Shown: positions 14,837 through 36,662, numbered from the stretch's first letter. The stretch is DNA of 36,662 bases from an uncultured Pseudomonadota bacterium (GCA_947165555.1 CAMVAR010000001.1:1-36662); one strand, 5' to 3'. Numbers and translations are program-made. Notes: generated by a model not told the origin, from the letters alone.

Positions 14837-15142
14837 ATGAGACAACAGGTACTAAAAGCATTGGCAAATCCGTCACATTTGTTCTTTGTACCGTACACAT
14901 TGGCCGTGATAAATTTCATGGTTCAGTTTTGTATTTTTATTATTTTATTTACAATTGGTATTTTTGTTTTTGGAATAGAAGATGTTGCCGGATATATAAA
15001 CCCATTGTATTTTTTAATATCTGTATGTGTTGTTCATATGATTTTAGCGCGTTATTCAAAACGTGACCCACAACTTGGCCAAATTTTAATCGCAAAAATA
15101 CGTATGTTAAAAAATAAAATACCACGGAGGTTGGCCGCATGA
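14837..15142 (+). CDS. virB3: Type IV secretion system protein VirB3/TrbD-like
   Basis: This is a 101-aa ORF with two hydrophobic helices. It has the VirB3-type N-terminus (KALANPSHLFFVPYTLAVINFM) and ...ARYSKRDPQLGQIL. Its stop overlaps the virB4 start (ATGA). Confidence 0.75.
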   Translation: MRQQVLKALANPSHLFFVPYTLAVINFMVQFCIFIILFTIGIFVFGIEDVAGYINPLYFLISVCVVHMILARYSKRDPQLGQILIAKIRMLKNKIPRRLAA

Positions 15143-17556
15143 TAGATGGTTTTTTTGGATATTTTGCCGGCGGTGGTTTTTCAGAAACGATGACATTAAC
15201 TATTATGGCCATCGCGGTGATTTTTGTATTTATTATATTAATGATATATGTGCCAACAATTGTAAAACATGTTTTTCCAAAATTTGGTTATAAACATTAT
15301 TATCAATATATTCCATTTCAAACCGTATATACCGATGATTCGTTGGAATTATCAGATGGATGTTTGGTACGTGTGTATGCAATATCTGGGGTACAAACCA
15401 GTATGCAGACCGATGAACAAAAAGAAAAATTTTTAGATTTACGGGCGCAGTTATTTAATCAAATTCATGACCCGAACGTTATATTGCGTTTTTTTACAAC
15501 ACGCGATGCCGTTGGTGAAAATACAGATTATGAATTTGACCAACCGGTTTTACAAAAAATTTATGATAAATGGCATGCCCAGGGGTTACGTATATTTATC
15601 AATAATTATTATGTTGTGTTATCGGTGCGCGGGATAAATACACGTGATAAATTAAATCAATATAGTAATTATATAGAATCTATTTTGGCACCATATAATC
15701 CGCGTGTTTTGAAAAATAAATCACGTAATAATATGGCAAAGTTTTTTGGTCGTATTTTTTCACCAATTACAAAACCAAATCCCGTCGTGTGTGATGAAAA
15801 AATTACAGAGTTATCAACCGTTGATGATGTGGAATTTTTACGTAATGGTATTGTTCGTTATATAAGTGGTAATCGTGAATATTTTGCGGCGTTGATGTCT
15901 TTTCGGGCGGCACCTGATTTCTTGGACGAAGATTTTTATGATTCTGTTAATACAATTCAAACAGAAATGATTTGTATGAATGGTTTTAAAATCATGGATT
16001 CAACCGATGTTGATACGGTTATGCGACAAAGACGTAGTGTTGCATCAAAAGAAAATGATTCAACCGAAGAACAAATTTCGCATGCACAATCGGTCATGGA
16101 TGAAAATGTGTCTGGGAATCAGACGTTGGTGAATTATTATCCATTGTTTGTAATTTTTGGAAAATCAATCGAAGAATTAACAGAATATGTTGATGAATTT
16201 AAAAAAATTTCTGCATCGTTTGGCGTGTCACCAATACAGGAAAATTTTGCAACCAAGGTTTCGTGGTTTTCGATGGTGCCGGGATTTGATACATTTCCAC
16301 GAACATTTAAAATGCTATCGCGGGCCGCCGCAATTAGTATACCAATGTCCAGTGCACCACGCGGTATTTCGGATTCAGATTGGGGAAATGGACCGTTGGT
16401 TGTTTTTCCCACGGCCCAGGGTACCCCATATCAATTTCAATTTCATGTATCATCTGCGCCGGCCGCGGTTGGTCATACATTAACAATCGGTCCAACCGGT
16501 GGTGGTAAAACAACATTATTTTCATTCCTTATTGCACAATCGTTGCGACATAAAAAACTAAAAGCGTTTTTCTTTGACCGTAACAAAGGTGCAGAAATAT
16601 TTACACTGGCCGTTGGTGGAAAATATATCACAATGCAAGGTAAAGAAAAATCTGATACGACATTTTTAACACATCTTAATCCATTAAAAATGCCGGATAC
16701 GGTCGCAAATCGTGCATTTTTACGTCGATGGTTTGCAATGATTTCGGAACAAAATGATGCAATATCGTCCGATGAAATTGCGCGCGCGGTATCAGTTAAT
16801 TATGATTATTTATCAGATAAAGATAGAATGTTAAAAAATCTGTGGGAAAGTTGTTTTTCATCCGCAGGAAAAATGCGCCCCGCGTTGAAAAAGTGGGTGG
16901 ACCCGTTGCAATATGGTGATATATTTAATGAAGATAGTGATACACTGGATTTACAATCACGTTTAACTACATTTGATTTTACCGATATTTTACAAGATGC
17001 GGTTTTGGCACCGGCGGTTATTTCATATATATTGCATCGTATAAATAATACAACCGTTTCAGGTGGAAATCCATCGCTTATTATGATAGACGAAACCGCG
17101 CCGATGTTGGAAAATAAAATGTTCCGTGATAACTTTATCACCGGTTTACAAGAAGGACGTAAAAATCGTCAGGCATATATGGTCGCGTTCCAACGTGCAA
17201 ATGTACTGGATAAATTGGGTATTGGTGATGTTGTTCGTGGTCAGGCTCAAACGATTATGTTTTTCCGGAATCCCGCCGCGGATGCGTCTGATTATGAACA
17301 TTGGAATTTAAATCCATTGGAAATGGCATTTATCCAAGGCAAGGCGTATCCAAATCTGAAACGTGCGGTTTTGTTATCACGTCCTGTGAATAATGAATCG
17401 GTTATTTTAAATACAGAATTGGGTGGATTAGGAAATATGTTGCGTTTATTTGAATCTGGACGTTCATCGGTGTTATTGGCCGAAGAACTGTATCGACAAT
17501 ATGGTTCGGCATTTGTTAACGAATACCTTAGAAAACAAGGGGTTGGTGATTTATAA
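15139..17556 (+). CDS. virB4: Type IV secretion system ATPase VirB4/TrbE family
   Basis: This is an 805-aa ORF. It has Walker A (IGPTGGGKTTLFSFL), Walker B (SLIMIDETAPML) and downstream GRKNRQAYMVAFQ. An extra N-terminal TM helix is present. Confidence 0.93.
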   Translation: MIDGFFGYFAGGGFSETMTLTIMAIAVIFVFIILMIYVPTIVKHVFPKFGYKHYYQYIPFQTVYTDDSLELSDGCLVRVYAISGVQTSMQTDEQKEKFLDLRAQLFNQIHDPNVILRFFTTRDAVGENTDYEFDQPVLQKIYDKWHAQGLRIFINNYYVVLSVRGINTRDKLNQYSNYIESILAPYNPRVLKNKSRNNMAKFFGRIFSPITKPNPVVCDEKITELSTVDDVEFLRNGIVRYISGNREYFAALMSFRAAPDFLDEDFYDSVNTIQTEMICMNGFKIMDSTDVDTVMRQRRSVASKENDSTEEQISHAQSVMDENVSGNQTLVNYYPLFVIFGKSIEELTEYVDEFKKISASFGVSPIQENFATKVSWFSMVPGFDTFPRTFKMLSRAAAISIPMSSAPRGISDSDWGNGPLVVFPTAQGTPYQFQFHVSSAPAAVGHTLTIGPTGGGKTTLFSFLIAQSLRHKKLKAFFFDRNKGAEIFTLAVGGKYITMQGKEKSDTTFLTHLNPLKMPDTVANRAFLRRWFAMISEQNDAISSDEIARAVSVNYDYLSDKDRMLKNLWESCFSSAGKMRPALKKWVDPLQYGDIFNEDSDTLDLQSRLTTFDFTDILQDAVLAPAVISYILHRINNTTVSGGNPSLIMIDETAPMLENKMFRDNFITGLQEGRKNRQAYMVAFQRANVLDKLGIGDVVRGQAQTIMFFRNPAADASDYEHWNLNPLEMAFIQGKAYPNLKRAVLLSRPVNNESVILNTELGGLGNMLRLFESGRSSVLLAEELYRQYGSAFVNEYLRKQGVGDL

Positions 17557-27203: not shown

Positions 27204-28130
27204 ATGAAAACACCGTGGTGGTTTTTGCATAAAACGCCGTTGGCATTATTACTGGTGCCGGTGTCGTGGATTTATTTTTTGTGTTCGCGTGTTGTGTTTT
27301 TATGGCGGCGTATGTTTGAATACAAATCGCGACGGAAAATTATATGTGTTGGTGGTATTTTGGCCGGTGGGGTTGGAAAAACACCAATTGTACGTGTGGT
27401 TGCAAAATATCTGGATGCACCCGTGGTTATGCGTGGATATAAAAAGAGTGCCAAGACCGGAAATATCGGGGACGAGGCGATGATGTTAATGCGTGATGAT
27501 ATTATTGTTCATGTCGGTCACAGAAAAAGCAATATTATGTTATTGAATCGTCAGGCGCATGACACAGGTCCAATTGTTATGGATGATGGTATGCAAAATC
27601 CGACTATTAAGAAAGATATTTCCATTTTTGTATTTGACCAATCAATTGGGTGGGGTAATGGTTTTATGTTGCCTGCCGGGCCGTTACGCGCCCCGCGCAA
27701 GGGTGTCGGGCGCGCCGATGCGATAATTGTTATTAAAAGTAGGGTAAAAAAGCGAAACTTTAACCTGCCGTCAAATGTGCCAATATTTTGGGCCGAAAAT
27801 AAAACAGTGTCACCATTCAAACGGGGTGAACGCATAGTTGCGTTTGCCGGAATTGGCTATCCAAAAAAGTTCTTTAAATCGTTGGATGGTGTGGTGACAA
27901 CACGGTCTTTTCCAGACCATTATCAATATACTGATGAAGATATAGAATATTTGTTGAAATTGGCCAAGAAAAAGCAAGCAAAATTATTAACCACAGAAAA
28001 AGATTGGGTTCGTTTATCCAATGATACACGTAAAAAAATACAATTTGCACGATTGGAAACGCATATTGCACCAGAGTTTTTTGAATGGATAAAGGAAAGG
28101 TTAAATGTCAACGATAAAACAAAGCGTTAA
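27204..28130 (+). CDS. lpxK: Tetraacyldisaccharide 4'-kinase
   Basis: This is a 308-aa ORF with an N-terminal hydrophobic helix. It has the P-loop VGGILAGGVGKTPIV and GDEAMML. Its size and context fit. Confidence 0.9.
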   Translation: MKTPWWFLHKTPLALLLVPVSWIYFLCSRVVFLWRRMFEYKSRRKIICVGGILAGGVGKTPIVRVVAKYLDAPVVMRGYKKSAKTGNIGDEAMMLMRDDIIVHVGHRKSNIMLLNRQAHDTGPIVMDDGMQNPTIKKDISIFVFDQSIGWGNGFMLPAGPLRAPRKGVGRADAIIVIKSRVKKRNFNLPSNVPIFWAENKTVSPFKRGERIVAFAGIGYPKKFFKSLDGVVTTRSFPDHYQYTDEDIEYLLKLAKKKQAKLLTTEKDWVRLSNDTRKKIQFARLETHIAPEFFEWIKERLNVNDKTKR

Positions 28131-29046
28131 AATATCGGGTCATGGTATTCATTCGGGGTTGCCGGTTAATATGGTGATAAACCCATCGGATACAATGGGA
28201 ATATTTTTTCGACGTGTTGATTTGCCAACATCAAAATTAATACCGGCGCGATTTGATAATGTTTGTGATACAAAAATGCGTAATACCACCATTGGCGATT
28301 TAAATGGTGCGCATGTTAAAACAATTGAACATGTTATGGCTGCATTATTTATTGCCGGCGTGGATAGTGCAATTATTGATATAGATGGCCCGGAAACACC
28401 AATATGTGATGGCAGTGCAGTTGAATTCTATAATGCAATAATACTTGCCGGTGTTGATGGTAATATAACCCGGCGTATTGTTGTAAAACGACCCGTTGTT
28501 GCGTATATGCGGGAAATGCGTCGCACATTGCCATTGTTTATGCGCATGCGATTGTTTTTGTTTGATTTGTTTTCCGGGCGGCGTGCCGATGGATATGTGA
28601 AATTAAGTCCGGCCAATGAAAATATTTTAAATATTAATGCGACATTGGTTTATAGGGAAAAAATTATTGGCAATCAAACATACTCTTATTCGTTTGATGG
28701 GTCCGATGCGGCAAAAAAAGATTTTGTTCAAAATGTTGCACGCGCGCGTACGTTTGGTAAATTTTCAGAATGGGAATATTTGAAATCACATGGAATGGCG
28801 CGGGGGGCAAATGAAACAAATATTATCGCATTGAATGATAATGGGGATGCAACACTAAATAAAACATTTTGGCCCGATGAATTTGTGCGTCATAAAATCA
28901 TAGATGCGATTGGCGATATGTTTACATCGGGTGGGATGATTGTCGGAAACATGGTGTCGTATAAGGGCAGTCATGGGCTGAATAATTTTGTTTTGAAAAA
29001 GTTGTTTAGTAATTCAGATAATTATGATATAGTGGATATGCAATAA
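28105..29046 (+). CDS. lpxC: UDP-3-O-acyl-N-acetylglucosamine deacetylase
   Basis: This is a 313-aa ORF. It has KISGHGIHSGLPVNMVINP, TIEHVMAALFIAGVDSAIIDIDGPETPICDGSA and HKIIDAIGDM. An AAAGGAAAGG Shine-Dalgarno sequence lies upstream. It overlaps the lpxK 3' end by 26 nt. Confidence 0.95.
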   Translation: MSTIKQSVKISGHGIHSGLPVNMVINPSDTMGIFFRRVDLPTSKLIPARFDNVCDTKMRNTTIGDLNGAHVKTIEHVMAALFIAGVDSAIIDIDGPETPICDGSAVEFYNAIILAGVDGNITRRIVVKRPVVAYMREMRRTLPLFMRMRLFLFDLFSGRRADGYVKLSPANENILNINATLVYREKIIGNQTYSYSFDGSDAAKKDFVQNVARARTFGKFSEWEYLKSHGMARGANETNIIALNDNGDATLNKTFWPDEFVRHKIIDAIGDMFTSGGMIVGNMVSYKGSHGLNNFVLKKLFSNSDNYDIVDMQ

Positions 29047-29061
29047 CAAAAGGAAAGGGTT

Positions 29062-29499
29062 ATGAAAAAATATTTTGGTTTTATGTTGTCGGCGTTGGTG
29101 CTGTTTGGATGCGGCGGGTACGTTAAGAATGAAAATGGCAGTCAATATATAAAACAACTGGATGGTGAACCAATTGGTTGTATGTTTTTGTATAAACTGG
29201 AAACAGAGATTTCGGTATATGACCAAGAAGATGCGCGACGTTATTTGGAAAATCGTATCGCAGACCAGGCCCGTCCCGGAAATGCGTACTGGATTGTTAG
29301 TCAACGGACAAGACCAAATGAATGGGTTGTGTTTGGTCCGGAGCGCGCCTTTGTTTTGGCTGCAAATGTTTATAATTGTCCAAATTTGAATACCGTGCGG
29401 ACCGCACGTTCGGATAGTCCAATGCCGGAAATGGAACCGGTGCCGTGTCGTGGGGCGGGGTTATTTTATGGCGTGCAAACGAATGGTTGTGTCCAATAA
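29062..29499 (+). CDS. Small lipoprotein (145 aa), possibly DUF4156-like
   Basis: It has a signal peptide with a lipobox (MKKYFGFMLSALVLFGC). An AAAGGAAAGGG Shine-Dalgarno sequence lies upstream. It contains 5 further Cys. The family guess is weak. Confidence 0.7.
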   Translation: MKKYFGFMLSALVLFGCGGYVKNENGSQYIKQLDGEPIGCMFLYKLETEISVYDQEDARRYLENRIADQARPGNAYWIVSQRTRPNEWVVFGPERAFVLAANVYNCPNLNTVRTARSDSPMPEMEPVPCRGAGLFYGVQTNGCVQ

Positions 29500-29523
29500 G
29501 TTATATGTTTTTGTAAAAAAATA

Positions 29524-29551
29524 AAACCGTTATATCAATAACGGTTTTTTT
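29524..29551 (+). terminator. Rho-independent terminator after the lipoprotein gene
   Basis: The hairpin AAACCGTTAT-atca-ATAACGGTTT is followed by a T-run. Confidence 0.8.
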
Positions 29552-29555
29552 ACAC

Positions 29556-29585
29556 TGGAATTAGAAATAGGTTTTGTGTTATAAT
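29556..29585 (+). promoter_or_regulatory. Putative extended -10 promoter for the pilus-like operon
   Basis: TGTTATAAT lies at 29577-29585, with TATAAT at 29580-29585. A weak -35 element, TGGAAT, lies 18 nt upstream. The 9-mer is identical to the one at the virB3 promoter. Confidence 0.45.
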
Positions 29586-29614
29586 TTATTTCAGAATAAA
29601 CCGAGAGAGAAATT

Positions 29615-30883
29615 TTGGCACAACAATATATACAAATTAAACGAAAAAAATATGCGGCTGGATTATTCTGGCAACCAATGGTTTCGGGATTTACACCACG
29701 GGCATACGCATATAAATTGGCGCGGGGAATTGACCGGCGGATGCGGTTATACATAAATCAATTGGGAATGATTGGTTTGGGTGGACGTGCGTTCGGGCAT
29801 CGGTCGGGAATGCCATCGATTGCAATAGAAATAATAAATGCGTTACCCGGTTATTCTTCGATAATGGGTGTGTTTAATGTTGGAAATAAATATGTTCTGG
29901 TTGCGGTAAGAAACGGTGTTATTTTGCATGATATGTTATTTGAAGATGAAAATGCCGCACGTGAAAAATATGTGGAATTATCTGAAATTCCGGATTGGAA
30001 TGCGCTATTCGCGCCTGCTGTGTGGGGTATGCCGCGTGCGGTTGAACGTGATTTAATTGAAATGATTACCGGAAGTAGTCATGGTGTGTTGCGCCCGATT
30101 AGTCGTGTGGGTGCGGGTATGTTGTCGTTAATTATACTGTTCGGATTTGGTTTATTGTTTTTATATTTATTCCGTGAACCATTAAATCAGATTATGGCAC
30201 CGACACCACAAATATCAAAAATAAATCCAGAATTAGCCCAGGAATATAAACGCCAAATTGAAGAAAAAAATAAAGAATTAGATAAACAATATAATATACG
30301 CCAAGAACCAGTTATTGAACCACTGGTTATGCCGTATGATATGTTGCCGGATATGGGGGTGCGTGCAGATGTGTGTTATCGTGCAATTGCATTTTTAATG
30401 CAACCAATTACGGGATGGAACCAGACGGTTGTTGAATGTGGCGAAACACATGCAAACGCAACGTTTAAACGGTCGTTTGGAACACTGGATGATTTCTATG
30501 CGATGGCCGAAAATTTAATGCCCGGTGTATTTGTCCAAGAAATTAGTGATGATGAAATTTTGGTGCGTGCAAAATTACCGGAACGTATCGGTAGAAAATC
30601 GGTTGATATGCGTACACCGGATGATATTGTTCGTGATTTGACCAGTCGTTTTCAATCAATGAACACAGATGCAGAAATTACCGTTGTTGTTGATACAATA
30701 GCAAATGAAACGCAATCCGCAGATATTTATCTAATTGAATTATTTGCGGAATCTAAATTAACCCCGGAACAGTTTATGAAAATTTTTGATGGGGTTGATG
30801 GTGTGTACATGACCAAGGTTACCTGGGGCGTGGCAAGGAAAATATGGAACTATGAGGTGATAATCTATGCAAAACAAAATTAA
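29615..30883 (+). CDS. PilO/PilO2-like type IVb pilus accessory protein (bitopic)
   Basis: The start is a TTG preceded by GAGAGAGA. The N-terminus IKRKKYAAGLFWQPM resembles the ...FVAGLFWQ... start of type 4b PilO2 proteins, as I remember them. A single TM helix (GAGMLSLIILFGFGLLFLYLF) is present. The gene order fits the R64/PAPI-1 pilO-pilP-pilQ-pilR arrangement. Confidence 0.6.
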   Translation: MAQQYIQIKRKKYAAGLFWQPMVSGFTPRAYAYKLARGIDRRMRLYINQLGMIGLGGRAFGHRSGMPSIAIEIINALPGYSSIMGVFNVGNKYVLVAVRNGVILHDMLFEDENAAREKYVELSEIPDWNALFAPAVWGMPRAVERDLIEMITGSSHGVLRPISRVGAGMLSLIILFGFGLLFLYLFREPLNQIMAPTPQISKINPELAQEYKRQIEEKNKELDKQYNIRQEPVIEPLVMPYDMLPDMGVRADVCYRAIAFLMQPITGWNQTVVECGETHANATFKRSFGTLDDFYAMAENLMPGVFVQEISDDEILVRAKLPERIGRKSVDMRTPDDIVRDLTSRFQSMNTDAEITVVVDTIANETQSADIYLIELFAESKLTPEQFMKIFDGVDGVYMTKVTWGVARKIWNYEVIIYAKQN

Positions 30884-31568
30884 AATGTTATTTGTGTGTG
30901 TGGCGGCATTATTTTGTGTGGCGTCGTCGTACGCTGATTTGGAATACGATACACAATTCGAAGATGTTATTGATGTTATCGATGAAACGGATAATATCAC
31001 GGTTAATTCGCCCGAAGATATTTCCGCAGACGCAATCGAAGAATATCAGGTCGAAGGCTCTTTGTTTCAACAAATTACTGATTTGGAACAAGAAAAGATT
31101 TTAATGCAGTTGGAAAAAGAACGCGCGCAATTAAATTTGGATTTGGACCGATTGGCCGCAGAAAAAATTAAATTGCATTTAGAAATAGATAATCTGTCGG
31201 GGCGCGCAGAACAACAACAGCAAGAATTAGAAGCTGAACGTGCGCGTCTAGATGCCGAAGCCCGTCGCATGGAAACGGAACGAAATGCAATCGCAACACG
31301 ACAGGCAGAGCCAGTCGTGCGTACACAGCCTGTGGCGTCAGAGAAAAAAGAAACAGAGTTTGAACAAAAATATAAACTGGTCAACGTGTTCGGTGCCGGT
31401 GCGCAATTGCAGGCCACAGTTCAAGATTTAGAATCCGGTCAAAATAAACGTATTAGTGTTGGTAAAGAAATGGATGGATATACGGTAAAATCTATATCAT
31501 TGGATGACGGAATTGTTTTTGTTAATGGTGACGAGGTAAGAACATTAAATATATCGGGTAAAAATTAA
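30867..31568 (+). CDS. PilP-like periplasmic protein with coiled coil
   Basis: A GAGGTGA Shine-Dalgarno sequence lies upstream. The signal peptide is MQNKIKMLFVCVAALFCVASSYA. A long Glu/Arg/Gln coiled coil follows. The C-terminal beta domain is YKLVNVFGAGAQLQATVQDL...VGKEMDGYTVKSISLDDGIVFVNG, which is PilP/GspC-HR-like. The gene overlaps the upstream gene. Confidence 0.5.
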   Translation: MQNKIKMLFVCVAALFCVASSYADLEYDTQFEDVIDVIDETDNITVNSPEDISADAIEEYQVEGSLFQQITDLEQEKILMQLEKERAQLNLDLDRLAAEKIKLHLEIDNLSGRAEQQQQELEAERARLDAEARRMETERNAIATRQAEPVVRTQPVASEKKETEFEQKYKLVNVFGAGAQLQATVQDLESGQNKRISVGKEMDGYTVKSISLDDGIVFVNGDEVRTLNISGKN

Positions 31569-31572
31569 CAAA

Positions 31573-33210
31573 ATGAAATCGAACGAAAATAGCGTTTTGA
31601 ATAATATGTCTAATATAGAAAAACCGTCGGTGCCGGCCGGTTTGGAACATGCCGATAACAAGGATATTATTGATTATTTGTTCACCGAAAATAATCATCT
31701 GTTGACGGCCCCGGGTGCCGAATTTGAATTACCAAAAGATACCCAGGGATTATTGGCATATTTTTCCGGTGGGTGCATCATTATTTCACGTACGCATAAA
31801 TTTGATGGTCGGGTGTTGGCGTTTATAGATTTGTTGCGCAGAAAAAATCGTCCAATGCGTGAACCGTTTTATTCTGATTTGGGTTTGGTTTCCGACATAT
31901 ATAAATACCATGAAAATAAGTTGGGGGGTGGGGACCGGTCGCGTTTGGATTATAACAACCAAATGCAAAAAGATTTTGTTGATATTGTTGCCCGTGCCGC
32001 TGCACAAAAAGTATCAGATATTCATATCAAGGTAGCCGACCAAACGACTATATTTTTCCGTATAGATGGCAGTATGCAACCGGTTTTAGAATTTAATGCC
32101 GGGTGGGGCGAATCTTTTGTGCGCGCCGCATTCGCTTCATCTGATATTTCAAATGCAAATTATGCCCAGAATGAGTATCAATCTGCGCAAAAGGATGGGC
32201 GTACACCATTGCGCGGAACCAAAGATTTGTATTTGCCCCATGGAATTTTGGGTATAAGAATGCAATTTAATCCAATCGCATTCGGCAGTCGTTATGTGGT
32301 GATGCGCTTGCTTTACGACAATCCATCGGAAAGTATCAAGATAGAGCAGGAATTTGGTAAATATGAACAAAATCTGTTGCGGCGGTTGCGGTCGTTTCCA
32401 ACAGGATTGGTCGTGGTTGCCGGTCCAACCAGTTCGGGTAAGTCAACGACACTGGTTCGGAATATGGTTTTGATGTTAAAAGAACATCATTATGAAATAA
32501 ACCTGATTACGGTAGAAGACCCCGTCGAACAAAAAATATTTGGTGCAAATCAAATTCCGGTTGTAAATACCGCCAACGAAGAACAACGCGAAAACGAATA
32601 TACCGAGGCATTGGCCGCCGCGTTGCGCAGTGACCCTGATACATTGATGGTTGGTGAAATTCGTACATTGGCCGCCGCACAATTAACAGTCAAGGGCGCA
32701 TTGTCCGGCCATAATGTTTGGACGACGTTACATGCAAATTCTGCAATGGCCGCATTGGTACGATTGTTAGATATGGGGGTAGAGGCGTTTAAGTTAAAAG
32801 AAGAAACAATGATGCGTGGTTTGGTATCTATGCGTTTGTTTAAACGTTTATGTCCACATTGTCGGCAACGCCTGATAGAACATCCAGAATTACCGGAATA
32901 TAAACGTGTTAATGATTGTTTCGGTGAATTGGGTCTGCGCCAGGTTTTTGTTCGTGGGGTGGGGTGTGAACACTGTAACGGGACCGGAACCCAGGGACGT
33001 ATCAAGGCCGGCGAAGTTATTATTACAAATAGTGAATTTTTACAGTTGGCATTGGCGGGTAATACCGATGCAGCCGTCAAATATTGGTTGGAAGAATTAG
33101 ATGGTCGTACATTAAAAGAATCTGCGTCGTCGTTGATGTTGCGTGGTATTATCGGTGTCGATGAATTGGAACGATGGGTCGGATTATTGGACCGGCCGGG
33201 GGTGTATTAA
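31573..33210 (+). CDS. GspE/PilB-family secretion ATPase (type IVb PilQ-like)
   Basis: This is a 545-aa ORF. It has Walker A (VVAGPTSSGKSTTL), an Asp box/Walker B (LRSDPDTLMVGEIR) and a His box (GHNVWTTLHANSA). A tetracysteine motif is also present (CPHCRQ...GCEHCNGTG). Confidence 0.93.
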   Translation: MKSNENSVLNNMSNIEKPSVPAGLEHADNKDIIDYLFTENNHLLTAPGAEFELPKDTQGLLAYFSGGCIIISRTHKFDGRVLAFIDLLRRKNRPMREPFYSDLGLVSDIYKYHENKLGGGDRSRLDYNNQMQKDFVDIVARAAAQKVSDIHIKVADQTTIFFRIDGSMQPVLEFNAGWGESFVRAAFASSDISNANYAQNEYQSAQKDGRTPLRGTKDLYLPHGILGIRMQFNPIAFGSRYVVMRLLYDNPSESIKIEQEFGKYEQNLLRRLRSFPTGLVVVAGPTSSGKSTTLVRNMVLMLKEHHYEINLITVEDPVEQKIFGANQIPVVNTANEEQRENEYTEALAAALRSDPDTLMVGEIRTLAAAQLTVKGALSGHNVWTTLHANSAMAALVRLLDMGVEAFKLKEETMMRGLVSMRLFKRLCPHCRQRLIEHPELPEYKRVNDCFGELGLRQVFVRGVGCEHCNGTGTQGRIKAGEVIITNSEFLQLALAGNTDAAVKYWLEELDGRTLKESASSLMLRGIIGVDELERWVGLLDRPGVY

Positions 33211-33213
33211 AAC

Positions 33214-34284
33214 ATGAACAGATTGGAATTATTTTATGCCAAAATGGTGTGCAGGTTTAGCAATAATAAAAGAATTGCAATTTGGCGTAAATTGGCTTCT
33301 TTGTTGAAAAATGACTTTACATTGGTTAACGCATTAAACCGGTTACAGATGATTGAATCACGGGGCGGGGCCAAACCGAACGAACCGTTTGCAATATGTC
33401 TGCGGGAATGGGAAAAAAATCTTGAACGGGGATTAAGTTTTTCCGATGCGACACGTGGTTGGGTTCCGGCCGAAGAAACATTATTGTTGACGTCCGGAAA
33501 CATGTCCAGTTTGGTTGTTGCGCTGGAAAATGTTGGTAATATAATTGTTGCGAACAAGCGTATCGGTTCTGCTGTGTTTGGCGCGATTGCGTATCCGTTG
33601 TTATTATTGGTTTTGGTGTTGGGCATAATTGTTATGGTTGGATTATACCTGGTGCCACCATTGGCTGATGTGGCGGGTGATGGTATGGTGTGGCGTGGAT
33701 GGGCATCGTCATTGATTTGGTTGTCCAATTTAGCGGGAAAATATTGGCATATATTTACGGTATGTTTTATTGTTTTGTGCATTGTTGTTTGGTGGTCTTT
33801 GCCAATTTGGGCCGGCCGAATGCGCGCCGTGTTTGACCGGTTGCCACCGTGGAGTGTTTATAAGGTTCGTATATCGGTTGGTTGGATGATGTCGTTGGCG
33901 GCGATGGTTTCGTCGGGTGTAACGGTGCCGGACGCAATGCGTATGTTGGCGGACAATTCCAATCGGTATCTGCGCAATATATTGGAACGAACATTACGGT
34001 ATATTGCGAACGGTGATAATTTGGGGGATGCGTTGGCAAATACCGGCTTGGATTTCCCGAACCAGGAAATTATTGGTGATTTGACGATTTATGCCGACAT
34101 GAATGATTTTGACGATAACCTGGGCCAGATATCCAAAGACTATCTGGAAAATTCGGTAAAGCGCATTGAATCCATATCCAGCAGTTTAAATACAATTGGA
34201 ATTTTACTGATATCTGCGGTAATTGCGTGGATTGTGTTGGGTACATTCCAGATGCAGGACCAGATTACAGCATTCCTTAGTTAA
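33214..34284 (+). CDS. GspF/PilC-family inner-membrane platform protein (type IVb PilR-like)
   Basis: This is a 356-aa ORF. It has two cytoplasmic helical repeats, each followed by TM helices, which is the T2SS-F layout. It starts 3 nt after the ATPase stop. Confidence 0.85.
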   Translation: MNRLELFYAKMVCRFSNNKRIAIWRKLASLLKNDFTLVNALNRLQMIESRGGAKPNEPFAICLREWEKNLERGLSFSDATRGWVPAEETLLLTSGNMSSLVVALENVGNIIVANKRIGSAVFGAIAYPLLLLVLVLGIIVMVGLYLVPPLADVAGDGMVWRGWASSLIWLSNLAGKYWHIFTVCFIVLCIVVWWSLPIWAGRMRAVFDRLPPWSVYKVRISVGWMMSLAAMVSSGVTVPDAMRMLADNSNRYLRNILERTLRYIANGDNLGDALANTGLDFPNQEIIGDLTIYADMNDFDDNLGQISKDYLENSVKRIESISSSLNTIGILLISAVIAWIVLGTFQMQDQITAFLS

Positions 34285-34342
34285 TATTGATACAATTTAA
34301 TAAAACACGTTCCACTTTTTGCTTTTATTTTTTTTGCCTATG

Positions 34343-34351
34343 TGGTATAAT
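34343..34351 (+). promoter_or_regulatory. Extended -10 element upstream of the Cys-rich gene
   Basis: TGGTATAAT lies 27 nt before the ATG at 34378. An AAGGGG Shine-Dalgarno sequence lies 7 nt before the start. Confidence 0.4.
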
Positions 34352-34377
34352 AAATTGATACCAAAAGGGGAACGAGG

Positions 34378-36662
34378 ATGAGATTTCTTTTAAAAATTGT
34401 TGGTTTTTTGCCGGTTTTGTGCATGTTTGATGCGGGCGCGGCGGTGCGTGCGGGTGCGGGTGGAAACACCAATTCGACCGGGCGTATTTCGGTTTCGCCA
34501 TCGATTGGTGTAACATCGACGGCCGGTATGGCGGCGGCGCGGCGTTTGCCGACGATGGTTTCGGCGAAAAATGTTGCGGCGGCGGCGATTGCGGCGGCAT
34601 CTGTTAATACAACAACGTCATCATCATCGTCGTTAATGACGGAACGCGAATGTGTTGATGCCTATACCGAATGTATCAAGGATGCCGATGTTTGTGGTAT
34701 TGGTTTTGAAGAATGTACAACATCTGAATTATTCTATGCAAAAAAGCCCCAGTGTAACAGTGTTTTGTTGCAATGTGATGCAACCGGTATCAATACATTG
34801 TTTGGGACATCGAATACGGATAATCTGGCGACGAAAAATACGACCGGTGAATATGTGTATCCCACCGCGTCCAGTATCCTGGGCCAGTTTATAGAGGCCG
34901 GTGCCATCAATAATCGCCTTGATACGACGGCATGCGTAAAACGCTATACATCATGTTTAAAGAAAGAGAGTGTGTGTGGCGAATATTTTGAATTATGTAC
35001 ATCAAATGCCGAATTTAAAAAGCAAAAGATTTTCTGTGAATCGACATTGGCCCGGTGCCAGGATGGTGGCCTGAATGAATTGTTGGGTTCGACAAATGTG
35101 TCCGCGAACCCCACATCGGCCAGTCGTATTGGTGTCATGATTCGCGAAGGTGCGGATTTGGCCGCGGTTAATGCCGTGTCCACGTGTTACAAGGTTGCCG
35201 ACCAATGTATCCTGTCGGCGTGTACCGCGAACCCATATAAATGTATAGTGGACAGTAACACCGAATTGGTTATGCGTACCGATGATATAAACGAAGATAA
35301 TACGGTCAAGGCCGACACCACCGGCGCATTTATTGATGCGATTACGACGTCAACGGTTTCGCGTTATATCCGGTCATCGTGTGCCGAAACGATTGGGGGC
35401 AACAAATATTGCTATATGACCGTGAATGACGGGCGTGTTCCGACGGCGTCCCAGATTAACGACGAAGAAAACCGTTCGGATGTATATTCTGATATTTATT
35501 CGGCGCGCATGAACAGTGCGTTACGTGAAAAAATCCAAAAATTGGCCGACACATTTGATAAAAAGACCAAGGATAAATGTTCCGATACGATTACCGCCTG
35601 TGCGATGCGTTCGTGTGGTTCGGGATTGGGGTCGGCGTGTTATGAGTTGGTGTTTGGTTCCGGGCGTAATTGCTTTGACGGGACGACGGGCGGTGGCACA
35701 TGTTCGATTAACGGCAATTCAACATATAACGAGGTTAAGATTGGATGTGAATCAATTGTGAATACCGATGCAAATTGTAAATATGCGGCGGCATCCGTTG
35801 GTTCCAAGACATACGGTTATGAATATAACACCGCCGATGCATTCGACAGATTGTTCCCGGCATTGGAAAATGGCACGGACCCGATTGGGGTTGTGTCCCG
35901 ATTGAATGCGTCGTTGGCGGAAAATTATAACAATGCCGCGATTGAAAGAATGGCCAAACAGTGCAAAAATACGGCGGTCAGTTGTATTCGTTCACTGTGT
36001 GGTTCGGACTTTACAAATTGCTATCGTAACCGTACGGATGTTATGACCGATACGTATGCGACCGCATCACATCCGGATTCACAGGCGGCAACCGGCACGG
36101 ATGAAAACGGTCATACGATTACATATGATTCTTCGGCGTTTGATAAAAGTATGAACAAGGTTGGCGGGGTACTTGACTTTACGATTGTTCGTGGTTTGTG
36201 TATAAATACCGTCAAAGAGGCCGATGTGTGCGATGAACATTTGAAAATTCAGGCAATTAAGACTTACACCGGCCAGGGTGGTAAAACCGGTTGGGGTGAT
36301 AATAAGAGTGTTCGTGACGCATGGGTTGGTGCGGTCAAAGATGGCTATTCGGCACGCGTTAGCCGTGATGACGAGGCCGTATTGATTGGTTGTCGTGCAT
36401 CAGATTCCAAGGGTGGAAAATGTGACATCAATGTTATTGCGGAATGTGATACCGTTGATACGAATGGTTGCGTCTATGATGTCGAAGCGTACGAGGCACG
36501 TAATGTTTACCAGTTGAATATGGCGGCGAATACATTATTCCAAGAGGTTATGGGTGACCTGGAATTAGAGGCCCAGGCAAAGTATAACGCCAAATTGACG
36601 CGTGAACAGAATATGTGCATGTCCGCGAACAGTGGTGGCATTATGGGACGTAAAGATATTGC
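34378..36662 (+). CDS. Very large secreted Cys-rich repeat protein (5' partial, at least 761 aa, runs off the window)
   Basis: This ORF is absent from the track because no stop is reached. I translated the frame by hand from ATG 34378 to 36662 and found no stop. The signal peptide is MRFLLKIVGFLPVLCMFDAGAA, followed by an Ala/Ser/Thr-rich linker. By manual count there are about 38 Cys. A tandem 94-aa module carries the pattern C-x6-C-x6-C-x6-C-x12-C-x6-C. The antisense ORFs here are shadows. Confidence 0.85.
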   Translation, partial: MRFLLKIVGFLPVLCMFDAGAAVRAGAGGNTNSTGRISVSPSIGVTSTAGMAAARRLPTMVSAKNVAAAAIAAASVNTTTSSSSSLMTERECVDAYTECIKDADVCGIGFEECTTSELFYAKKPQCNSVLLQCDATGINTLFGTSNTDNLATKNTTGEYVYPTASSILGQFIEAGAINNRLDTTACVKRYTSCLKKESVCGEYFELCTSNAEFKKQKIFCESTLARCQDGGLNELLGSTNVSANPTSASRIGVMIREGADLAAVNAVSTCYKVADQCILSACTANPYKCIVDSNTELVMRTDDINEDNTVKADTTGAFIDAITTSTVSRYIRSSCAETIGGNKYCYMTVNDGRVPTASQINDEENRSDVYSDIYSARMNSALREKIQKLADTFDKKTKDKCSDTITACAMRSCGSGLGSACYELVFGSGRNCFDGTTGGGTCSINGNSTYNEVKIGCESIVNTDANCKYAAASVGSKTYGYEYNTADAFDRLFPALENGTDPIGVVSRLNASLAENYNNAAIERMAKQCKNTAVSCIRSLCGSDFTNCYRNRTDVMTDTYATASHPDSQAATGTDENGHTITYDSSAFDKSMNKVGGVLDFTIVRGLCINTVKEADVCDEHLKIQAIKTYTGQGGKTGWGDNKSVRDAWVGAVKDGYSARVSRDDEAVLIGCRASDSKGGKCDINVIAECDTVDTNGCVYDVEAYEARNVYQLNMAANTLFQEVMGDLELEAQAKYNAKLTREQNMCMSANSGGIMGRKDI

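Follow-up and report, generated by a model that had tools for sequence, protein, structure and literature searches.

A candidate variable surface protein: a cysteine-rich gene family of gut Alphaproteobacteria with a cassette-like insert and no conserved linkage to pilus-like genes

In flagellins (central domain), type IV pilins (the disulfide-bonded D-region) and the Msp2/P44 proteins of Anaplasma (central hypervariable region), conserved ends flank a segment that is replaced, and cassette replacement of this kind is typical of those regions of flagellins, pilins and major surface antigens that are exposed. Disulfides that staple antiparallel helices are established for two other groups, the Helicobacter Hcp (Sel1-like) proteins and the twin-CX9C (CHCH) proteins, and the chlamydial proteins OmcB and OmcA are Sec-exported envelope proteins of host-dependent bacteria with approximately 4-5% cysteine. 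Here, we describe a gene that shares features with each of these systems. It is an open reading frame (ORF) at positions 34378-36662 (+) of a 36,662 nt stretch of DNA from an uncultured Pseudomonadota bacterium (GCA_947165555.1, CAMVAR010000001.1:1-36662; hereafter the window), which an original prediction had singled out as a hidden gene for a disulfide-rich exported protein directly downstream of a pilus-like operon. We consider it fairly probable that the gene encodes a strongly expressed, Sec-exported, disulfide-stapled envelope or surface protein that is not part of a pilus and that bears an exposed variable cassette. A conserved scaffold carrying a recombining variable segment is an arrangement of a known kind; the family, with its six-cysteine module and its architecture, has not been described before and lacks a structural relative.

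Translation of the 2,285 nt gave 761 codons, free of stops through to the end of the window. The frame is absent from the gene track, as the original prediction had pointed out, because a standard ORF listing skips an ORF that has no stop before the window ends. Unfragmented homologs are 1,040-1,260 aa long, and comparison with those of 1,040-1,125 aa suggests that about 280-360 codons are missing past the window end; the ORF would represent about the 5′ two-thirds of a gene for a protein of roughly 1,050-1,100 residues and 110 kDa. Homologs span 100% of the 761-codon fragment at 60-68% identity, which shows that the frame is unbroken by any frameshift. The Sec signal and the Ala/Ser/Thr-rich linker that had been read at the N-terminus are both present. 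By inspection, the N-terminus (MRFLLKIVGFLPVLCMFDAGA followed by AV) reads as a Sec signal of the signal peptidase I (SPase I) type, with a predicted signal peptide of 21 residues (aa 1-21; 34378-34440, +), predicted cleavage between A-G-A and A, and AxA sites kept at this place across the family. The linker that follows, of low complexity and rich in Ala, Ser, Thr and Gly, extends to approximately aa 88 (aa 22-88; 34441-34641, +) and has AlphaFold pLDDT values below 50; within it lies an RRLPT motif (aa 55-59; 34540-34554) whose Arg and Pro are invariant in 118 sequences. A lipoprotein was considered and rejected, as the LPVLC and LAVLC sequences are non-canonical lipoboxes, only 50% of members possess Cys15, which sits within the hydrophobic core of the signal peptide, and there is an AxA site downstream of it. 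There was no class III (prepilin) signal either, such a signal having a short basic leader with Gly at -1 and Glu at +5 ahead of a hydrophobic helix; an AxA SPase I site stands in its stead, and Pfam gave no N_methyl match.

The statement that the protein belongs to no recognised family held against every resource searched. Neither the fragment nor its full-length homologs gave a match in Pfam, NCBIfam, PHROGs or PDB sequences, four full-length members had no Pfam match at E ≤ 1, and Foldseek was equally without a match (below). A word-indexed search identified at least 784 homologs, every named one of them a 'hypothetical protein', and when 1.84 billion cluster representatives were searched exhaustively with a profile, only 262 clusters at 50% identity emerged, indicating that the family is narrow. 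The homologs come from metagenome-assembled genomes (MAGs) of rumen, omasum, yak, deer and other guts that are labelled Alphaproteobacteria or Candidatus Enterousia; termite-gut MAGs labelled 'Rickettsiales bacterium' supplied the most divergent members. The family is limited to gut Alphaproteobacteria with reduced genomes (order Rs-D84 / Ca. Enterousia and their relatives from termite guts), and the gene is apparently single-copy and widespread in the clade. Enterousia is placed in the uncultured order Rs-D84, the genomes of which are 0.75-1.0 Mb in size and lack a tricarboxylic acid cycle and a respiratory chain, and the bacteria of this order have been interpreted as obligate symbionts or parasites (PMC12306168).

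Cysteine accounts for 38 of the 761 residues (4.99%), relative to 0.5-3% in the window's other genuine genes, which agrees with the figure of about 5% first given. The tandem 94-aa module described at the outset was also recovered, with cysteine spacings of 6, 6, 6, 12 and 6 occurring twice, from aa 92 and from aa 186. Copy 1 covers aa 89-182 (34642-34923, +; C92, C99, C106, C113, C126 and C133) and copy 2 covers aa 183-276 (34924-35205, +; C186, C193, C200, C207, C220 and C227); local alignment of the two scored 137, relative to 27.9 ± 5.4 for 2000 shuffles, none of which reached that score (z = 20). The three units that follow have the spacings originally assigned to them, namely CX6CX4CX6C at aa 270-289 (35185-35244, +), CX6CX4CX7C at aa 401-421 (35578-35640, +) and CX6CX4CX6C at aa 529-548 (35962-36021, +). 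The rest of this mostly alpha-helical, cysteine-rich region (35245-36662, +) contains five CX9C pairs (aa 335/345, 432/442, 457/467, 608/618 and 672/682) and further single cysteines at aa 690, 698 and 747. Nearly all cysteine columns, those of copy 2 included, are kept in 99% of 185 sequences, and the scaffold has approximately 37 conserved cysteines; pair 432/442 is an insertion present in part of the family only, and its two cysteines are mostly found together (phi 0.66). In distant members the architecture is otherwise complete, but copy 1 is missing and a single six-cysteine module remains, so that the tandem duplication is a trait of the Enterousia-like branch alone. A second secreted protein with 5% cysteine (854 aa; locus L009, 3661-6225) carries a CX6CX6CX6C motif (CIGALENCMKDDMVCGDNYFKC), and its similarity to the six-cysteine module is weak (27% over 112 aa, E 3e-4); the module may recur in other proteins of the clade.

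The number of cysteines follows a parity rule. The mature chain has 30-48 cysteines, an even number in 177 of 179 full-length members; it is the omission of the signal peptide from the count that makes the number even in 99% of members. Within the chain, the N-terminal body has an odd count in 98% of the 179 members (most often 37), a single cysteine stands in the C-terminal tail of 176, and the hypervariable insert that is described below has 0, 2, 4, 6, 8 or 10 (even in 177). An even total, with gains and losses in twos, indicates that all cysteines of the mature chain are probably disulfide-bonded rather than metal sites or free thiols, and an odd body count together with one tail cysteine points to a single long-range disulfide between body and tail. 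Taken with the signal peptide, the parity suggests that the whole chain, including the insert, lies outside the cytoplasm.

Cysteines spaced as CX6C, CX4C and CX9C lie in the predicted helices, and cysteine pairs of the CX6C and CX9C kind on helices have a geometry known from disulfide-stapled helical hairpins. AlphaFold2 modelling of a full-length homolog (118-sequence alignment) predicted a mostly helical structure between residues ~77 and ~600, where most blocks reach a pLDDT of 75-89, together with beta elements at ~630-805 and at the very end of the chain and linkers that are disordered; in a model of aa 86-300 of the window protein, both modules had a pLDDT of ~90 and the same secondary-structure pattern. 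Foldseek found no significant match for the full-length model in PDB (best E 0.58) or BFVD (best E 0.03), with a TM of ~0.1, and none in PDB for the confident two-module model (best E 3.9). The likeness to Hcp and CHCH proteins lies in predicted helical hairpins with cysteine pairs at i/i+7 or i/i+10, and C432-x9-C442 with C457-x9-C467 resembles the twin CX9C of the CHCH domain, a helix-loop-helix whose two CX9C motifs form two disulfides, the pairing here being predicted. The Sel1/Hcp repeat is, however, a 36-aa helix pair with CX7C, whereas the module here is 94 aa long, has six cysteines and is dominated by CX6C; neither Sel1 nor CHCH matched in Pfam even at E ≤ 1, and the module model had no Foldseek match.

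The most variable part of the protein lies past the window end, and was seen in full-length relatives and extrapolated to the window gene. In these relatives, a small beta-rich domain comes after the scaffold, then two Gly-rich segments that flank an insert of 65-336 aa, and finally a conserved tail of 45 aa. Column conservation is ~0.15-0.3 in the insert, relative to 0.7-0.85 elsewhere. At a core identity of ≥97%, 41% of pairs have an insert identity of <35%, and inserts 15-24% identical are found where the rest of the protein is 97-100% identical. For example, relatives P0004 and P0005 are 100% identical as far as 'GLGGLLNT' and again from 'GGLATSQNIK', with ~110 unrelated residues between, and P0009 and P0054 are 68% identical in the core and 93% in the insert, with near-identical C-terminal 280 residues. 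The 179 inserts formed 91 clusters, and no known domain was found by Pfam in eight representative inserts. As near-identical proteins carry unrelated inserts, these data indicate that the insert undergoes wholesale cassette replacement by recombination. The homologs accordingly show one defining feature of variable surface antigens, which are a functional class and not a homology family, namely a recombining hypervariable segment on a conserved scaffold. The original suggestion of a host-interaction protein is still plausible, on different grounds from those first offered, as it now rests on the hypervariable cassette of the relatives. No silent donor cassettes of the Msp2/P44 type were found in the ~10 kb flanks examined. 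A diversity-generating retroelement was rejected by inspection, without a search for a reverse transcriptase, as the inserts are unrelated, differ in length over the whole range and do not vary at selected positions only.

Compared with the established variable surface proteins, the cysteine-rich family shares the existence of very many unrelated types (91 in 179 sequences) and, with pilin D-regions, paired cysteines in the variable part. It differs in having no sequence or fold similarity to them, no prepilin signal and no beta-barrel porin signature; its scaffold is a disulfide-rich helical region of ~750 aa, and its exposure at the surface is something that we infer. Pfam gave no match to a C-terminal beta-barrel or autotransporter, the C-terminus (...GDLIEISVD) ends in Asp, Glu or Lys in place of the terminal aromatic residue of such proteins, and the predicted structure is mostly helical. 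The segments on either side of the insert are ~40% Gly/Ala, of GxxxG type and weakly hydrophobic (median KD19 1.28 and 1.44), and in this respect recall the two Gly/Ala-rich GxxxG-type segments of the glycine zipper 2TM family (PF05433), which includes the Rickettsia 17 kDa antigen and SlyB/Pcp. In contrast to that family, the segments are 65-336 aa apart and do not form a tight hairpin, there is no lipobox, and close relatives had no match; the best score against PF05433/PF13488 was 21.7 bits (cut-off 24.2), for the distant member P0195 only, and P0003 had none.

The promoter and Shine-Dalgarno sequence that had been ascribed to the gene are both in place. An extended -10 element, TGGTATAAT (TGnTATAAT; 34343-34351, +), occurs in 31 of 31 related loci at a constant distance from the start codon, and is followed by a short leader, AAATTGATACCAAAAGGGGAACGAGG (34352-34377, +), conserved in pairwise comparison between loci and including a G-rich Shine-Dalgarno region (34365-34377), and then by the ATG. 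A simple -35/-10 scan had overlooked this promoter because it has no good -35 hexamer. Upstream lies a conserved T-rich tract, CCACTTTTTGCTTTTATTTTTTTT (34312-34339, +), where homology to the upstream regions of orthologs begins, ~28 nt past the stop codon of the preceding platform gene; position 34312 marks a synteny breakpoint with the 3′ flank of that gene. Pairwise identity between loci is 0.79 over -40 to -1, 0.62 over -70 to -40 and 0.27 over -150 to -100, and 0.47 over coding positions +45 to +90. The promoter and leader, ~70 nt in all, therefore go with the gene irrespective of the gene upstream and are better conserved than the coding sequence. A regulatory RNA in the leader was rejected, since the leader had no match in Rfam and no stable structure, folding into less structure than its shuffles (z = +1.5); an unstructured leader fits efficient translation initiation. 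The promoter and leader suggest that the cysteine-rich gene is transcribed independently, probably at a high level.

In part, the base composition was as first described. The gene has the highest GC content in the window (0.471), and NCG codons make up 0.47 of NCN codons compared with 0.42-0.44 in three other window genes; its GC3 of 0.473, however, equals that of the adjacent platform gene, so it is not richer than this neighbour at third positions. Much of the GC excess is amino-acid composition (GC2 0.477). Horizontal acquisition as a reading of this signal was rejected, because the GC3 difference is common to the platform gene and the rest is largely amino-acid composition; it is also opposed by the presence of the gene in relatives from ruminant, yak and termite guts.

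The original prediction had further proposed a pilus-associated adhesin or cargo, and this proposal did not survive comparison with other genomes. In the window, the gene order is LpxK, LpxC, a small lipoprotein, PilO-like, PilP-like, a GspE/PilB-type ATPase, a GspF/PilC-type platform protein and the cysteine-rich gene. The genes upstream resemble the IncI1 R64-type thin pilus (type IVb) cluster in PilO (PF06864, sub-threshold), PilP (TIGR03021), the ATPase and the platform protein; they differ in that the upstream cluster contains no pilin, secretin or prepilin peptidase, and the cysteine-rich gene is no conserved member of it. Lack of linkage in other genomes was an outcome that the original prediction had itself named as refuting it, and linkage was examined in both directions. 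The gene-bearing set comprised 34 loci (33 species-representative genomes and one more) with 10 kb flanks, and none had ATPase, platform, PilO or PilP genes within 10 kb of the cysteine-rich gene. In the other direction, the DUF374-LpxK-LpxC-lipoprotein-PilO-PilP-ATPase-platform block is conserved in 32 metagenomic loci from rumen and termite guts (L040-L071), and the cysteine-rich gene was found at none of them; in these relatives, the pilus-like operon stops at the platform gene and convergent genes follow. The usual context of the cysteine-rich gene is a different one. In ~27 of the 34 loci the order is a DUF4167 gene, three genes for 400-470-aa proteins, a zinc-ribbon/FxLYD protein, a small secreted protein, RluD and the cysteine-rich gene, and an Rfam scan of L001, L003 and L020 placed a complete rRNA operon ~0.8-1 kb downstream; other loci have the same short spurious ORFs downstream as the scanned ones, and the two closest homologs examined have the usual RluD-gene-rRNA context. 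None of the 66 loci shares the adjacency seen in the window, which stems either from a rearrangement specific to the lineage or from a chimeric join; no exact-sequence match to the platform and LpxC proteins of the window, sought as a check of the junction, is on record. Co-transcription with the pilus-like operon found no support either, in view of the gene's own putative TGnTATAAT promoter and leader in 31 of 31 loci. More generally, gene adjacency in a single window can mislead, and here the pilus link vanishes once other genomes are compared.

It is nevertheless conceivable that the protein serves as a tip adhesin linked to a pilus or type II secretion system (T2SS), or as a disulfide-bonded substrate folded in the periplasm and then displayed or secreted by the adjacent machinery. 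T2SS substrates are Sec-exported and often disulfide-bonded, and besides the PilO/PilP/ATPase/platform genes directly upstream in the window, ~27 of 33 relatives have the gene 3-6 genes downstream of three prepilin-like proteins. These are the 400-470-aa proteins (L001 4044-8969 and ~27 other loci), with prepilin-like N-termini such as RGTVLIEFLLTIAL. In L034, the gene lies directly downstream of a 151-aa protein (1464-1919) with a classical-looking prepilin N-terminus, GRSLIEIVGVLAITAV; this pilin-like gene also adjoins genes for an OmpA-like lipoprotein and a Skp-like protein. We nonetheless regard a pilus or T2SS role as unlikely. Apart from the zero counts in both directions and the deeply conserved promoter, RluD stands between the pilin-like block and the cysteine-rich gene, the upstream context differs in L009, L022, L023 and L030, and no secretin was seen in the operon. 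The prepilin-like block is absent beside the gene in these four loci and in L034. The N-terminus of the protein itself is of the SPase I type, and hidden Markov model (HMM) support for the pilin nature of the upstream proteins is sub-threshold; the three prepilin-like proteins are followed by the zinc-ribbon/FxLYD membrane protein and the small secreted protein, and none has a significant family match.

Several observations concern the loci themselves. L025 (the cysteine-rich gene near the end of a UBA1185 contig) and L044 (the operon at 79-100 kb, JGI) may be one contig, in which case gene and operon would be ~80 kb apart. Assemblies often end inside the cysteine-rich gene or split it into two ORFs (L013, L019, L024, L029, L031 and L034), and many database members of the family are fragments. 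The adjacent rRNA operon and strain-level mosaicism would account for contigs that stop inside or just after the gene, and may also explain why the window ends within it. Clustered CACTAAC(C) repeats or their reverse complement occur in intergenic regions (L008 9910-9930; L015 13446-13458; L040 and L044 11067-11100), in relatives lying ahead of the cysteine-rich promoter and after the platform gene; the window shows no enrichment of them, and they could be a dispersed intergenic repeat that is involved in rearrangements.

A periplasmic structural role is a second alternative, in which the protein would stiffen or tether the envelope in the manner of the chlamydial cysteine-rich proteins and the variable segment would be an unconstrained linker. 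Its high and invariant cysteine content, the Sec signal, the want of a strong transmembrane or beta-barrel signal and the reduced-genome, partner-dependent lifestyle of its hosts (PMC12306168) all fit such a role. Neutral drift, however, cannot yield inserts of 15-24% identity beside 97-100% identity elsewhere, and wholesale replacement with sharp edges, giving 91 types, argues for selection on an exposed part. There was no homology to OmcB or OmcA in Pfam or NCBIfam, nor a match to any chlamydial outer membrane protein family, and the strict evenness of the cysteine count suggests intramolecular pairs rather than an intermolecular lattice, which sets the family apart from the chlamydial proteins. 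MreC, PBP2 and RodA are encoded in the window, so a normal peptidoglycan sacculus is likely. We judge the structural role to be improbable.

Little credence is given to a polymorphic toxin or bacteriocin-like protein, in which a conserved delivery scaffold would carry an exchangeable effector cassette and the glycine-zipper segments would act in membrane insertion: the swapping of cassettes on a conserved scaffold and the Gly-rich, zipper-like segments are as expected, but eight representative cassettes had no toxin, enzyme or other Pfam domain, the cassette is internal with a conserved tail after it and not C-terminal, a spacer of ~0.9 kb and the rRNA operon follow in place of a cassette-linked immunity gene, and the gene is apparently single-copy and widespread. 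A metal- or cofactor-binding protein (a periplasmic metal store or redox protein) without disulfides is highly improbable as well, for although 4-5% invariant cysteine would suit it and disulfide formation is less obviously supported in anaerobes without a respiratory chain (PMC12306168), the cysteines stand in CX6C, CX4C and CX9C spacings on predicted helices and not in CX2C, CXXCH or Fe-S-type motifs, their numbers shift in twos even in the hypervariable insert, and no matching Pfam family was found.

With regard to the other genes of the window, the ATPase and platform proteins of the pilus-like block (26297-34284) also give ComGA/ComGB-type matches, which makes a role in DNA uptake conceivable. 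The window further contains VirB3-like (14837-15142) and VirB4-like (15139-17556) type IV secretion genes, and two loci from termite-gut metagenomes (L056 and L060) likewise have VirB4 upstream of their LpxK-pilus-like block. Two consecutive ORFs of 318 and 1,058 aa (20028-24139) begin with signal-peptide-like sequences and matched nothing in Pfam or NCBIfam and nothing meaningful in PHROGs; their products appear to be further uncharacterised exported proteins. An ORF of 128 aa with 7% cysteine (25760-26146), which adjoins a tRNA-Met gene (26186-26262, minus strand) and has no family match, is probably no real gene.

On balance, the data are best accommodated by a disulfide-stapled, non-pilus envelope or surface protein. 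The whole protein would fold in an oxidising extracytoplasmic space, where CX6C and CX9C disulfides would staple its helical hairpins and one long-range disulfide would tie the tail to the body. Judged by its promoter and leader, it would be abundant. The variable insert would be displayed at the cell surface, the cysteine parity placing it only as far as outside the cytoplasm, and diversifying selection by phage, partner cell or host would drive the turnover of cassettes. The protein would be neither a component nor a dedicated cargo of the adjacent type IV pilus-like machinery, and may serve these partner-dependent bacteria as their chief molecule of contact or adhesion.

A number of points weigh against this interpretation. 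Surface exposure, abundance and the disulfide bonds are all features that we infer, and the cysteine-parity counts were drawn from related, non-independent sequences. The cassette is extrapolated from homologs that are at most 68% identical to the window protein. The Gly-rich segments fall under the usual hydrophobicity threshold for transmembrane segments (median KD19 1.28 and 1.44), and glycine-zipper Pfam models reached them below threshold only, in one distant member (P0195). Pilus-machinery genes do adjoin the gene here, and pilin-like genes lie near it in most relatives. No Dsb gene was seen among the window genes in the family scans, and with the respiratory chain reportedly absent from Rs-D84, it may be asked how DsbB-type oxidation would be driven, and how an anaerobe of this kind would oxidise a protein in which 30-48 cysteines are paired.

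A more specific proposal, which we put forward only tentatively, is that the family represents a new variable surface protein, with a novel disulfide-stapled helical fold and a hypervariable, disulfide-bonded cassette held between two glycine-zipper segments and exposed at the surface; for an obligately partner-dependent lineage with reduced genomes, it would be the main point of contact with partner, host or phage, and it would owe its diversity to recombination between strains. Whichever fold it adopts, the six-cysteine module is a confidently predicted disulfide-rich module without a structural relative. The bacteria concerned are widespread in the guts of livestock and termites and in human-associated guts; they are believed to live at the expense of other cells, and the way in which they contact partners is not known (PMC12306168). 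In genomes of 0.75-1.0 Mb, a conserved gene of ~3.2 kb takes up ~0.35% of the sequence, and its promoter, among the best conserved at these loci, together with a cassette that differs between otherwise identical strains, makes it very plausible as the gene for the principal molecule of their surface or interface. It may find use as a strain-typing marker and as a target for metaproteomics, and may act as a phage receptor or adhesin.

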